From Escherichia coli (lineage in GTDB: Bacteria > Pseudomonadota > Gammaproteobacteria > Enterobacterales > Enterobacteriaceae): a stretch of DNA of 64,000 bases. Where the stretch lies: the NCBI RefSeq assembly GCF_013122565.1, contig NZ_CP053258.1; one strand, given 5' to 3'. Below the pieces are notes generated by a model, which saw nothing but the letters and a program-made list of their open reading frames with translations, had not been told where the DNA came from and searched no databases. The translations under genes were made by a program, and so were the position numbers. Positions within the stretch are counted from its first letter, which is position 1; each line of letters begins with the position of its first letter. Positions 1,268-7,081 of the stretch are shown here, piece by piece.

Positions 1268-2965
1268 TCAAAGCAATAACGTAGCCTGTGAGGCGACTGG
1301 GGTGCGTTGGTTAGGAATGTAAAACGCAATTTCCGTTCCTGGTTCCAGGCGGCGGATATGCAGCCCCTCGCCATACAATAACTTCACGCGATGATGGACA
1401 TTCAGCAGGCCAATTTTATTGCCCGGCATTTCATTCGCTTCGACCCGCTCAATCACCTTTGGATCGATGCCGTGCCCGGTATCCCGCACCGCAATGCGTA
1501 CCCGATTACCACACTCTGCAACGCTGATGGTGACAACGCCTTTACCTTTGCAAGGCTGAATACCGTGGACAATGGCGTTTTCCACCAACGGCTGGATCAG
1601 CAGGCTGGGAATGCAGCAATTCACCTCTTCATCAATATCATAGATAACCGTCAGCTTGTCGCCAAAGCGGGCCTGCTCAATGGCAATATAGTCTTTAATT
1701 TGATACAGCTCTTTTTTGATATCGATTTGCTCATCGTCTTTTAATTCAATGTTATAGCGCAGATAGCGCGACAAATTAAAGATCAGCTGGCGAGCAGTAT
1801 CCGGATTCAGACGGATCGACGATGAAATAGCGTTCAGAGCGTTAAACAGAAAATGGGGATTAATTTTGCTTTGCAGGGCGCGAAGCTCTGCCTTATTTGC
1901 CATTTCACGTAGCTGCTCGGCGCGTGAAACCTCCAGTTGGGTGGAGATGATTTGCGACAGACCGACCGCCATTTCCTGTAATGACGAGGTGATCTGATGC
2001 GCGTGGCAGTAGTAAATTTTCAGCGTTCCGGTCACAACGCCTTTCTCCCACAATGGGATCACCAGCATGGAATGAATCTCTGGTGTGCGGTGGGCTTCAT
2101 CATTGTTTTTAATGATTATTTTTCCGTAATTCATCGCCTGACGGGTAGTCGGGCTAATGAAGTCATCGCCATTCTGATAGTTATGTTCACCTACGCCAAC
2201 ATAGGCCAGCACATGATCGGTATTAGTAATCGCCACCGCATCGGCGTGAATATCATCGCGGATAATTTCGCAGACCTTGCGTAATGACTCGCTATTGACA
2301 TGGCGAAACAGCGGCAGCGTTTTGTTGGCGATATCCAGCGCCAGCTTGGCCTGCCGCGCGGCGCTGGCCTCTTTTTCGCCCTCAACGCTTTGCACCAGAA
2401 GCACAATAAAGCCGATACAGACGCTGCCGAGGATCATTGGAATGCCGATTTTAGAGACGATATCGATCCCCAACGCGGTAGTTGGTGCCCAGACAATCAC
2501 CAGAATCATGGTCAACGTTTCGCACAACATGCCGCCGAGAATACCGACGCGCCAGCGCTGCGCTTTGGGGATTTTCAGGTTGATCCAGCCCGATATACAA
2601 CCCGCCAGAATGCTGGTGATAAAGCAGGGGATCGCCGTCACGCCGCCGATATCAATTAAATAACGGTGAATACCCGCAATCACGCCGGTAATGATGCCGA
2701 CCCACGGGCCAAACAGAATCCCGCCTGACATCACCGCGATAATACGTACGTTCACCAGCGAGCCTTCTACGGGGACGCCGGACCAGGTGCTGAACAGGGC
2801 GAACAGCGAGAAAATGGCGGTAACAGCAAGCAACTCTTTTGGGGAGTGTGCCGACTTGTGCAACAGCTCGCGAAACAGGCGGATACGGATGAGAAAGAAC
2901 AGGCAGATAAGCATTAACGCTGCCCGATCGAAGACCGCCAGCAGCATGTTGAATATTTCGTGCAC
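1268..2965 (-). CDS. ypdA: Sensor histidine kinase YpdA (LytS family, 5TM-GAF-HK)
   Basis: 565-aa ORF with N-terminal membrane domain and histidine kinase motifs ([15 protein letters not shown]); directly upstream of ypdB. Confidence 0.92.
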
Positions 2966-3341
2966 GGGTGACTCTGAATAAGGATTAAACCTCTATGATA
3001 GGTAACCTGAAGGCTGATGACCAGCAGGCCGTTTTTGAGGAAAAACCACAATTTTAAAAGGGGATTGAAAGATAAATGGTGTATTAGCAATGCATCTCTT
3101 GATAATGCACATCTGGGTGGTAAATTTATTGAAATTATAATGTTAATAAAATGAGTGGTATTTTTCTTGTTAGCGTAGATAAATTTCCTGTTTTTAAAGC
3201 GGAGTTCCTCATTTAAAGCCATTAACAAAAATGTTCTAAAACGCTGGACAGACAGAAATTAATCAGGCTATTTTCAAAACAGCCACCATCGTGGCAGCGT
3301 CGCTCGGACGGTCCGGGCGCTAACGTTAATCTGAGGAAATT

Positions 3342-4580
3342 ATGGCTGACACTCGCCCTGAACGTCGCTTTACGCGCATTGATCGTCTCCCGCCCTACGT
3401 TTTTAACATTACCGCTGAACTGAAAATGGCTGCGCGTCGGCGCGGCGAAGATATTATCGATTTCAGTATGGGTAACCCGGACGGTGCCACTCCACCGCAT
3501 ATCGTCGAAAAATTATGTACGGTGGCCCAGCGCCCGGACACGCATGGTTACTCCACGTCACGCGGCATTCCGCGGTTACGTCGCGCCATTTCTCGCTGGT
3601 ATCAGGATCGATACGACGTTGAGATCGACCCGGAATCAGAAGCCATCGTCACCATTGGTTCGAAAGAGGGGCTGGCACACCTGATGCTGGCGACGCTGGA
3701 TCATGGTGACACGGTGCTGGTGCCGAATCCAAGCTACCCCATTCATATTTACGGCGCGGTGATTGCCGGGGCTCAGGTACGCTCAGTGCCGCTGGTGGAA
3801 GGTGTCGATTTCTTCAACGAACTGGAACGCGCCATTCGTGAAAGTTATCCGAAACCGAAGATGATGATCCTCGGCTTCCCGTCGAACCCCACCGCGCAAT
3901 GCGTGGAGCTGGAGTTCTTCGAAAAGGTTGTGGCGCTGGCGAAACGCTACGATGTGCTGGTGGTCCATGACCTGGCCTATGCAGACATCGTCTACGATGG
4001 CTGGAAAGCGCCGTCAATCATGCAGGTGCCAGGTGCACGCGATGTGGCGGTCGAGTTCTTTACGCTGTCAAAAAGCTACAACATGGCGGGCTGGCGTATC
4101 GGCTTTATGGTTGGCAACAAAACGCTGGTCAGTGCGCTGGCACGTATTAAAAGCTATCACGATTACGGCACCTTTACGCCGTTGCAGGTGGCAGCGATTG
4201 CGGCGCTGGAGGGCGATCAACAGTGCGTGCGCGATATTGCCGAACAGTACAAACGCCGCCGTGATGTACTGGTAAAAGGGCTGCATGAAGCGGGCTGGAT
4301 GGTCGAAATGCCGAAGGCTTCGATGTATGTCTGGGCGAAAATCCCTGAACCTTATGCTGCCATGGGCTCGCTGGAATTTGCCAAAAAGCTGCTTAACGAA
4401 GCGAAGGTCTGTGTCTCTCCGGGGATTGGCTTTGGCGACTACGGCGACACGCATGTTCGCTTTGCACTGATTGAAAACCGCGACCGTATTCGTCAGGCGA
4501 TTCGTGGGATTAAAGCGATGTTCCGTGCCGATGGTTTACTACCCGCCAGCACCAAACATATTCACGAAAACGCGGAATAA
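3342..4580 (+). CDS. alaC: Glutamate-pyruvate aminotransferase AlaC (class I PLP aminotransferase)
   Basis: 412-aa ORF with aminotransferase class I motifs ([12 protein letters not shown]); length and position match E. coli AlaC/YfdZ. Confidence 0.92.
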
Positions 4581-4600
4581 ACACCGACCTCAAAAATGCA

Positions 4601-4629
4601 AACAGGAGCCTGATGGCTCCTGTTTTTCA
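4601..4629. terminator. Rho-independent terminator-like hairpin between convergent alaC and ypdK
   Basis: Inverted repeat aacaggagcc/ggctcctgtt followed by a T-run, immediately after the alaC stop. Confidence 0.5.
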
Positions 4630-4644
4630 TTGCACAGTTTGCTT

Positions 4645-4716
4645 TTAGATCATCAGGGCAAAAGTACCGGCCCAAACGATGACCATAAAAGAAATGCCCA
4701 TAAAGAAATATTTCAC
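4645..4716 (-). CDS. ypdK: Small membrane protein YpdK (23 aa)
   Basis: Minus-strand translation from GTG at 4716 gives (M)KYFFMGISFMVIVWAGTFALMI-stop, matching my recollection of the 23-aa YpdK; too short for the ORF track. Confidence 0.6.
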   Translation of the reverse strand: MKYFFMGISFMVIVWAGTFALMI

Positions 4717-5071
4717 TTTACATCTCTCCGCGTAATTACTGTTACGCCTGAATGACTTCATTACACCTGATACAGTGAGTTGACACCGGGCAAAACGACC
4801 TTAAAAGTCCTGTATTTTACCGTGGGCATCACCCCAGAATTCTGAGCTAAACTGCTCCAGACGGCGCTAATGTACGCCTAAAATTGAAACGAGACAATAG
4901 GCATTTTCTTATTTACTTTTAGTAACTTACAGGTGTCTCATATCGGCGACAGTTTAATTTCTGACGGTAATAATTAGAGATTCAGCGAAGGAAAAAACCT
5001 TAAGAAAAAAGCCATAAAAACCATGGGGTTATTATGGCTGATTTGAGGAGGGAAAGAGTCAGAGCAGTTTG

Positions 5072-5992
5072 TTAAATGTATAGCGACGATTCTCCCACCG
5101 GGCGCGTTTTAAAGCGACGGTGGATCCAGAGGTACTGCTCCGGTGCGCGCATGATCTCTTTTTCGATAATCTTGTTCATATAGGCAGCGGCTTGATTTTC
5201 ATCTGCCGGGTAGCCTTCCATCTCTGGGGTGATGAACAAACGATATCCGCTGTAATCCGCTTTTCTTACCATCGTTACGGTCAACATGGCTGCGCCAGAG
5301 AGACGGGAAAGGACATACGTACCATTGGTTGTGGCGACATTTTCCACCGCAAAGAACGGTGCGAAGGAGCTGCCTTTACGACCATAATCCTGATCGGGAG
5401 CAAACCATACCGCTTCACCTTTCTTCAGTGCACTGACAATGCCGCGCAGATTATTTCTGCCGATCATCGCTTTGTTAGAACGCATGCGACCACGGGTCTG
5501 CACCCATTCCATCAGCTGATTATTATGTGGACGATAGGTAGCCATCATTGGTTGGCACAGTCCCATCACGCGACCGCCCAGTTCCAGCGACATAAAATGG
5601 ACGCCGACAACCATTACGCCGCGATTTTGCATTTGTGCGCGTTTAAGGTTATCCAACCCTTCAACATCAAACCATTTACGTACGCGACTGTCGGGCCAGA
5701 ACCACGCCATGCCGGTTTCTACCAGCGCCATGCCGAGTGAACGAAAGTTTTCGGCAATCATCTTCTCGCGTTCTTCCGCAGAATGCTGCGGGAAACAAAG
5801 TTCCAGGTTTTTACGGGCGATAGATTCACGACGTTTCAGGAATGGTCGCGCCATTGCGCCAATACGCGTGCCGAGAAAGCAGAGAACAGGGTATGGAAGT
5901 TGTACCCAAAGCCAGAGTACACCAAGCCCAAACCATGTGAGCCAGTAGCGAGGATGTAGAAACTCGCGGGAAAATTTGCAATGTGGAAACAT
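5072..5992 (-). CDS. lpxP: Lipid A palmitoleoyltransferase LpxP (cold-induced acyltransferase)
   Basis: ORF 5072..6058; internal ATG at 5992 gives MFPHCKFSREFLHPRYWLTWFGLG..., the 306-aa LpxP-like acyltransferase. Confidence 0.9.
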   Translation of the reverse strand: MFPHCKFSREFLHPRYWLTWFGLGVLWLWVQLPYPVLCFLGTRIGAMARPFLKRRESIARKNLELCFPQHSAEEREKMIAENFRSLGMALVETGMAWFWPDSRVRKWFDVEGLDNLKRAQMQNRGVMVVGVHFMSLELGGRVMGLCQPMMATYRPHNNQLMEWVQTRGRMRSNKAMIGRNNLRGIVSALKKGEAVWFAPDQDYGRKGSSFAPFFAVENVATTNGTYVLSRLSGAAMLTVTMVRKADYSGYRLFITPEMEGYPADENQAAAYMNKIIEKEIMRAPEQYLWIHRRFKTRPVGESSLYI

Positions 5993-6344
5993 AGTTACCT
6001 TCTGTAGATACGAATTGTTGTATCGCAGAAGATTCCATGTCGACAGCGGTACACTCAATTGGTTGGGCCATCATGTACGACAATGGTTCCTGTAAAGAGT
6101 GTAAAGACTAGTCAGGACATAACCACGAGGAGCATGAATGCGGTGGCTCTACTTTATCACTGGCTGACTGCTTTCAGCTACTGATTATTAATCGTGCAAA
6201 GTAAAAAATTTTCCCCACGCAATAGTGTTGCATTTAACATGCTGTTTTAATTGATGCTTAGCAAAAATTGCCAGAGGTTAAGGATTGTCTTACTATTAAA
6301 GTGACTGAAGTTACAGGTTTTTTAGCGCGGCAGGAGGTTGAGCT

Positions 6345-6587
6345 ATGATTTATTTATGGATGTTTCTCGCCCTGTGTATTGTCTGCGTAAGCGGCTACAT
6401 TGGTCAGGTCCTGAACGTGGTATCGGCGGTCTCTTCTTTCTTCGGCATGGTGATCCTCGCTGCACTCATTTATTACTTCACCATGTGGTTAACTGGCGGT
6501 AATGAACTGGTGACGGGGATATTTATGTTTCTTGCCCCGGCTTGTGGCTTGATGATTCGCTTTATGGTGGGGTATGGCAGGCGCTAG
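6345..6587 (+). CDS. yfdY: Small inner-membrane protein YfdY
   Basis: 80-aa hydrophobic ORF MIYLWMFLALCIVCVSGY...; conserved position between lpxP and ypdI. Confidence 0.8.
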   Translation: MIYLWMFLALCIVCVSGYIGQVLNVVSAVSSFFGMVILAALIYYFTMWLTGGNELVTGIFMFLAPACGLMIRFMVGYGRR

Positions 6588-6663
6588 TGGGTCAGGATGG
6601 TTCATTTGGGCAGGTGTTCACATCAGCATCAGGCATGATTGTTCACCTGCCATGTGACAGACG

Positions 6664-6939
6664 CTATCGCACAGGATGAATAAGATAATTCGCCTTTGTC
6701 GGAAAAGGGGGCGGAATTTCTTCTGTGAGGTTTAATGGTGGCGCATCTTCTCTCATTTTTAACAAAATCGCCTGTGATGGCTGAAATTTTGTAGAGTGAG
6801 TTGTCGTCATCGCTGACGTTTTTTCCGTCTCTTTATAGCTCGCCTCACTACCACCACCAGAAATAGAAAATGCAAAAACATTGCATGCCATAATAGAGAC
6901 CAATAAAAATAAGCTAAAAAGCATTAAGTTTACTTTCAT
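6664..6939 (-). CDS. ypdI: Putative lipoprotein YpdI
   Basis: 91-aa ORF with signal peptide and lipobox-like ...IMAC; position matches E. coli ypdI. Confidence 0.75.
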   Translation of the reverse strand: MKVNLMLFSLFLLVSIMACNVFAFSISGGGSEASYKETEKTSAMTTTHSTKFQPSQAILLKMREDAPPLNLTEEIPPPFPTKANYLIHPVR

Positions 6940-7081
6940 AGAAAGTTATCCTGAAAATGGTTCACTGAAAACCTACGATGTTATGGCTGTATTTACATAT
7001 AATTAATCAGTATTTACATCGATATAATAAATGATATCTCTTTGTGGTATATAAGAATAGTTCTCTGTGACAGGAAGCAGA

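Follow-up and report, generated by a model that had tools for sequence, protein, structure and literature searches.

The small-protein gene ypdK in the alaC-lpxP interval of Escherichia coli, with a GTG start kept across Enterobacterales and a predicted structured leader

The window analyzed here, a stretch of 64,000 nucleotides of Escherichia coli DNA, carries a 72-nt open reading frame on the minus strand, flanked by alaC (3342-4580, plus strand) and lpxP (5072-5992, minus strand). The frame and its nearest signals are arranged as follows.

4645-4716, minus strand: ypdK coding sequence, 23 codons, with a GTG start at 4716-4714 and a TAA stop at 4647-4645.
4726-4729, minus strand: Shine-Dalgarno (SD) sequence GGAG, 9 nt 5' of the GTG.
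4600-4625, acting in both directions: intrinsic terminator common to the convergent ypdK and alaC, an 11-bp hairpin followed by a T-run.

Read on the minus strand, the frame extends from GTG-AAA-TAT-TTC to CTG-ATG-ATC-TAA and is translated as VKYFFMGISFMVIVWAGTFALMI up to the stop or, with the initiator fM written, as (fM)KYFFMGISFMVIVWAGTFALMI. We identify it, with a probability of about 0.93, as ypdK, which the annotation of K-12 already includes as a small-protein gene. A 72-nt ypdK encoding WP_010723117.1 is annotated by RefSeq at the corresponding positions in JW5503 (a K-12 derivative), PT62 and GF66.2, and the translation scores 57.5 bits on the NCBIfam YpdK equivalog model NF033437 (cutoff 30), residues 1-23 of 23 being covered. 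The exact 23-aa protein appears under the name YpdK on at least 1000 contigs of a public protein collection; Pfam has no family for the peptide. A 1-kb query around the gene finds its counterpart in 5422 of 5426 complete E. coli genomes and, in every record among the matches listed, alaC, ypdK and lpxP are annotated under it. PMC3009722, too, gives the gene coordinates spanning 72 nt and counts it as one of 18 small ORFs from Hemm et al.

The K-12 protein (b4680; WP_010723117.1; NF033437) shares with the window the 23-aa sequence, the 72-nt gene, the SD, the GTG, the terminator and the position between alaC and lpxP; in MG1655 the gene occupies 2494943-2495014 of U00096.2, on the plus strand. 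A three-way alignment of the window, K-12 and PT62 has no mismatch from 46 nt 5' of the GTG up to and including the terminator stem, the entire ORF being covered; between K-12 and the window the gene itself shows no difference, while the surrounding 1 kb is 96.5% identical. The original prediction, which had placed a minus-strand 23-codon ORF at 4645-4716 between alaC and lpxP and named it ypdK, is borne out by the sequence and its translation, by the coordinates, accession and neighbors in the K-12 derivative and by the score on NF033437, and the comparison with the K-12 entry that it had called for gave neither another location nor a differing sequence. The observation is correct and already known, and the window holds an ordinary E. 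coli alaC-ypdK-lpxP region. As a separate matter, the segment 4300-5300 is at least 99% identical to only two of 5423 E. coli records, the best being PT62, from a pigeon, at 99.4% (K-12, 96.5%; ypdK alone, 100%), which points to an origin of the window in, or a recombination with, an uncommon E. coli lineage.

A bare ORF of 23 codons is not beyond chance: the ORF listing has 70 that reach 20 aa or more and overlap positions 2500-7000. The lister opens the ypdK frame at an upstream ATG and reports it as 38 aa (4645-4761), and the frame is absent at the default cutoff of 60 aa, as had been foreseen in the remark that ORF finders with length cut-offs would overlook it. What raises the ORF above chance is its conservation in 75 of 79 testable alaC loci with coding-type substitutions. 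The alaC loci of 80 Enterobacterales species were fetched; 75 carry a convergent ypdK ORF, one locus is truncated and four have no ORF. The gene mostly lies directly downstream of alaC and is displaced by 0.2-1.6 kb in three loci (L042, L044, L074). Its length is 23 codons in 55 loci and 24 in 20. Across 69 distinct ypdK nucleotide sequences the entropy by codon position is 0.57/0.18/1.13, a pattern from which we judge the peptide to be under purifying selection across Enterobacterales. Residues Y3, M6, G7, S9, G17, T18 and F19 are invariant, and the Gly, Ser and Thr among them are each encoded by all four codons. On a contig labeled Pseudomonas resinovorans DSM 21078 (L078), no ypdK lies near the alaC gene, whose product reaches 91% best-segment identity with E. 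coli AlaC; this identity is unexpectedly high for a Pseudomonas and could reflect contamination, mislabeling or horizontal transfer.

The upstream neighbor of ypdK changes from one group to another. The lpxP gene is found there only in Escherichia, Salmonella, Enterobacter, Lelliottia and some Citrobacter, and elsewhere the position is taken by genes for an amidohydrolase, an EAL protein, a DUF4434 protein, a LamB/YcsF protein, a histidine ammonia-lyase, a class A beta-lactamase or an emrAB-like pair. Since lpxP is a neighbor in some genera only, we reject the idea that it and ypdK are functionally linked. The constant surroundings of the gene are the convergent alaC, encoding the cytoplasmic AlaC, and the common terminator, whose stem (ACAGGAGCC/GGCUCCUGU) is conserved across Enterobacteriaceae around a variable loop and which begins about 20 nt after the end of ypdK. 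This constancy gives no clue to function, because it is what a spacing of about 60 nt between the genes would lead one to expect; nor does the wider gene context, because the upstream neighbor is not conserved.

Two of the alternative neighborhoods deserve a description of their own. In Kluyvera (loci L017, 5636-6601, and L023, 5651-6616), ypdK lies between alaC and a chromosomal gene of the KLUC/CTX-M family, a class A beta-lactamase gene that adjoins it on the opposite strand; in K. cryocrescens this neighbor scores 678.6 bits on blaKLUC. In Erwiniaceae (locus L059, 5554-8187, and other Pantoea, Erwinia and Mixta), an emrAB-like pair on the same strand, consisting of a 342-aa HlyD-family adaptor and an MFS transporter of about 533-599 aa, lies about 200 nt 5' of ypdK and is the sole recurrent membrane-protein neighbor seen beside it.

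Upstream of the gene, a promoter is predicted.

4863-4897, minus strand: predicted sigma-70 promoter, with a -35 element TTGTCT (4897-4892), a 17-nt spacer, a -10 element TACATT (4874-4869) and a GC-rich discriminator AGCGCC (4868-4863).

Across 26 aligned taxa, the -35 element keeps its TTG and the -10 element its TACATT without exception, the spacer measures 17-18 nt and the discriminator is GC-rich; an A/T-rich stretch precedes the -35 element in the group of Escherichia, Salmonella and Enterobacter. The exact 12-mer TACATTAGCGCC occurs 72-192 nt 5' of the GTG in 41 distinct loci. A consensus promoter scanner made no call at 4863-4897, because only 8 of the 12 consensus positions match. The predicted transcription start near 4862 fits a K-12 tiling array, in which a transcript starts 148 nt 5' of ypdK. 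From the sequence and this one array data set we infer that ypdK has a conserved promoter of its own about 146 nt upstream, the transcription start being a predicted one. A second candidate, a TATAAT/TATACT motif about 60 nt 5' of the GTG, was rejected as a promoter, since its E. coli version is degenerate (TGTATC) and has no -35 element; it is now read, provisionally, as part of the leader.

The predicted leader between this promoter and the gene appears to be structured, with the following elements.

4841-4861, minus strand: 5'-proximal hairpin P1, from single-sequence folds, its register varying.
4777-4835, minus strand: long-range helix P2, in which 4835-4826 pairs with 4786-4777 around a variable insert, from RNAalifold.
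4730-4747, minus strand: hairpin P4 (GCGUAA-CAGUAA-UUACGC), abutting the SD, from folds and alignment.

Folded one at a time, 34 of 36 genera or species form a P1-type hairpin at a distance of 1-3 nt from the predicted 5' end, and the stem sequences differ among them. Hairpin P4 also forms from differing stem sequences, in about 50 Enterobacteriaceae folded one by one, and its core is recovered by RNAalifold. In the P4 alignment, 78% of cells are paired (67% in shuffles) and double-change cells number 50 against 22 (0/500); for P2 together with the P4 core, the paired fraction is 94.4% (84.3% in shuffles; 26-58% in slid controls) and double-change cells number 47 against 17, a count attained in none of 500 shuffles. 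A candidate outer helix UUCAU/AUGAA around P4 and part of the SD is paired in only 62% of cells, with almost no double changes, and is not proposed here. The leader is present across Enterobacteriaceae and absent in Erwiniaceae; its middle is variable and in some taxa deleted. The insert inside P2 is missing in three loci, among them that of the GTDB E. coli representative (L003, 5372-5544; the others are L009 and L011), where the promoter-to-GTG distance is 125-131 nt instead of 158 nt, and these deletions support a dispensable insert within a helix that is itself kept. An Rfam search with the E. coli and Salmonella loci returned only sub-threshold chance hits, to the plastid psbJ 3'UTR and a snoRNA.

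Where does translation begin? Besides the SD and the GTG, two further ATG codons on the minus strand have to be considered upstream of the coding sequence.

4759-4761, minus strand: upstream in-frame ATG, the start of a 38-aa ORF in some older records; absent outside Escherichia and not the conserved start.
4718-4723, minus strand: out-of-frame ATG-TAA "start-stop" between the SD and the GTG, its ATG 2 nt from GGAG.

The first codon is GTG in 69 of the 69 distinct ypdK sequences from 75 Enterobacterales species, whereas the internal Val codons are GTG in only 30% of cases. In 74 of 75 loci the distance between a GGAG and the GTG is 6-10 nt, and in 46 it is exactly 9 nt. Of the 75 loci, 48 keep the ATG 2 nt past GGAG; in most genera it opens a longer ORF in the +1 frame instead of meeting a stop.

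The strongest rival, though very improbable, is that the real product is the 38-aa protein MKSFRRNSNYAERCKVKYFF... initiated at ATG 4761, the version that certain older E. coli records carry. The frame is open from that ATG in E. coli, annotations of the longer form comprise about 18 sequence variants and hundreds of contigs, and the codon falls inside the predicted transcript, such that a minor 38-aa isoform may exist in E. coli. The extension is nevertheless non-existent outside Escherichia: 33 of 75 loci have an in-frame stop 1-3 codons before the GTG, no start farther 5' is conserved, and the 38-aa extension is therefore not the conserved product. The sole SD-like sequence available to the ATG at 4761 (AGGTG) is only 2 nt away from it, the NCBIfam model spans only the last 22 residues of the longer form, and RefSeq now calls the 23-aa form. 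More remote still is a start at the internal ATG (Met6), which would yield an 18-aa peptide and reduce the GTG to a conserved valine-like triplet of the leader. The ATG at codon 6 is indeed invariant, but GGAG is 24 nt from it and 9 nt from the GTG, and the GTG does not vary in the way the internal Val codons freely do. Codons 2-5 moreover keep Lys-Tyr-(Phe/Ala)-(Phe/Leu) with synonymous third-position changes (Tyr3 is TAT or TAC; at codon 4, two codons for Phe and four for Ala occur), and translation therefore starts upstream of Met6. Judged by these comparisons, the start is settled as GUG and not as the upstream AUG still annotated in some records.

An equally remote reading holds that the conserved block is chiefly a non-coding RNA or a terminator element and the ORF incidental to it. 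The E. coli transcript does fold strongly (z = -5.05) and the leader helices covary. Against this, RNAalifold on 73 sequences spanning the SD and the coding sequence yields no conserved pairs, the substitutions within the ORF show three-base periodicity, and the ORF keeps an invariant length of 23-24 codons. Translation is further argued for by retapamulin Ribo-seq, in which ypdK is among the genes detected and is listed as "Ribo-ret only" (PMC12350097 Table S1). The same lack of RNAalifold pairs removed from consideration, as conserved features, both the helix between the SD and codons 3-5 in the E. coli minimum-free-energy fold and a strong hairpin within the coding sequence.

The weakest alternative, a strain-specific change of an ancestral ATG by which this genome would differ from K-12, has nothing for it beyond one possible reading of the original prediction's wording and can be dismissed, since K-12, PT62 and the window are identical through SD, GTG and ORF and GTG is found in all 75 species. 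The statement that the gene begins with GTG rather than ATG thus holds as to the codon present and, if it was meant as a departure from K-12, fails, K-12 also having GTG. Within E. coli, an exact 63-mer with GTG, from the leader hairpin to codon 11, is found in 4472 of 5423 records, and the same 63-mer with ATG in a single one, GF66.2 (NZ_CP172145.1; L083, 180-251), where the sequence was confirmed directly. GTG is the wild type in E. coli and the normal state throughout the order, and the ATG is a singleton variant.

The peptide read from the GTG continues after fMet-Lys-Tyr with 20 uncharged residues, of which 16 are hydrophobic and four small or polar (G7, S9, G17, T18), and the translation gives a single hydrophobic helix long enough to span a membrane. 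By this composition, YpdK is probably a single transmembrane helix with its N-terminus (fMet-Lys) in the cytoplasm. Helical-wheel arithmetic spreads the conserved residues around the helix and not along one face, a distribution that neither supports nor excludes a single packing interface. An SPA-tagged YpdK was reportedly detected by Hemm and coworkers in 2008. A full-text literature search for ypdK returned mostly noise, and the other bacterial mentions in it are silent on function.

Single-helix small proteins serve as accessory subunits of larger membrane proteins in several E. coli systems, as in the pairs AcrZ-AcrB, MgtS-MgtA, CydX-CydAB, KdpF-KdpABC and PmrR-LpxT. YpdK resembles AcrZ, MgtS, CydX, KdpF and PmrR in its size class, in its single hydrophobic helix with a few conserved small or polar residues and in having been missed by annotation. 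In contrast to them, it has no candidate partner in an operon, shares no sequence similarity with them and has no structural match, a PDB sequence search at E <= 10 having returned no chain that resembles the peptide. On this analogy, we consider the chances about even that YpdK is an accessory or regulatory subunit packing against a larger inner-membrane protein.

The pathway proposed from these features would begin with a monocistronic transcript of about 270 nt, made from the gene's own sigma-70 promoter and ending at the terminator common with alaC. 5'-terminal stem-loops shield transcripts from 5'-end-dependent decay, and the 5' hairpin of the ypdK transcript would protect it in this manner. 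The GUG start and the hairpin adjacent to the SD would then limit or condition translation, and the resulting single-helix peptide, with its positively charged N-terminus, would serve a larger membrane protein as an accessory subunit. That the fixed GUG and the SD-adjacent hairpin keep the synthesis of so hydrophobic a peptide low or conditional is a tentative proposal, to which we give somewhat less than even odds on the grounds of composition and analogy.

A further possibility concerns the transcript as a whole. SgrS/SgrT and AzuCR/AzuC have a similar build: each is a small transcription unit of its own, bounded by a promoter and a terminator, in which a tiny ORF stands beside a non-coding part that is structured and conserved. 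Unlike them, the ypdK RNA is not known to have a base-pairing target, Hfq association or regulatory phenotype, and it matches no Rfam family. The ypdK transcript could be a cis-regulatory RNA or a dual-function small RNA that times the synthesis of a hydrophobic peptide, with the invariant GUG as part of the device, although we regard this as rather unlikely. Other elements of such a candidate device may be the promoter with its GC-rich discriminator and the leader of about 146 nt with its 5'-terminal hairpin, P2 and the hairpin abutting the SD.

The fixation of GUG across the order, the conserved promoter and the structured leader are only mildly new material, and experiments are needed for them to matter. 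Why has the GTG been kept? GF66.2 offers a natural start-codon variant with which this can be asked. A GUG held fixed across a whole bacterial order suggests that the level of YpdK expression matters, and the promoter and the structured leader provide a handle for finding the conditions under which it is expressed.
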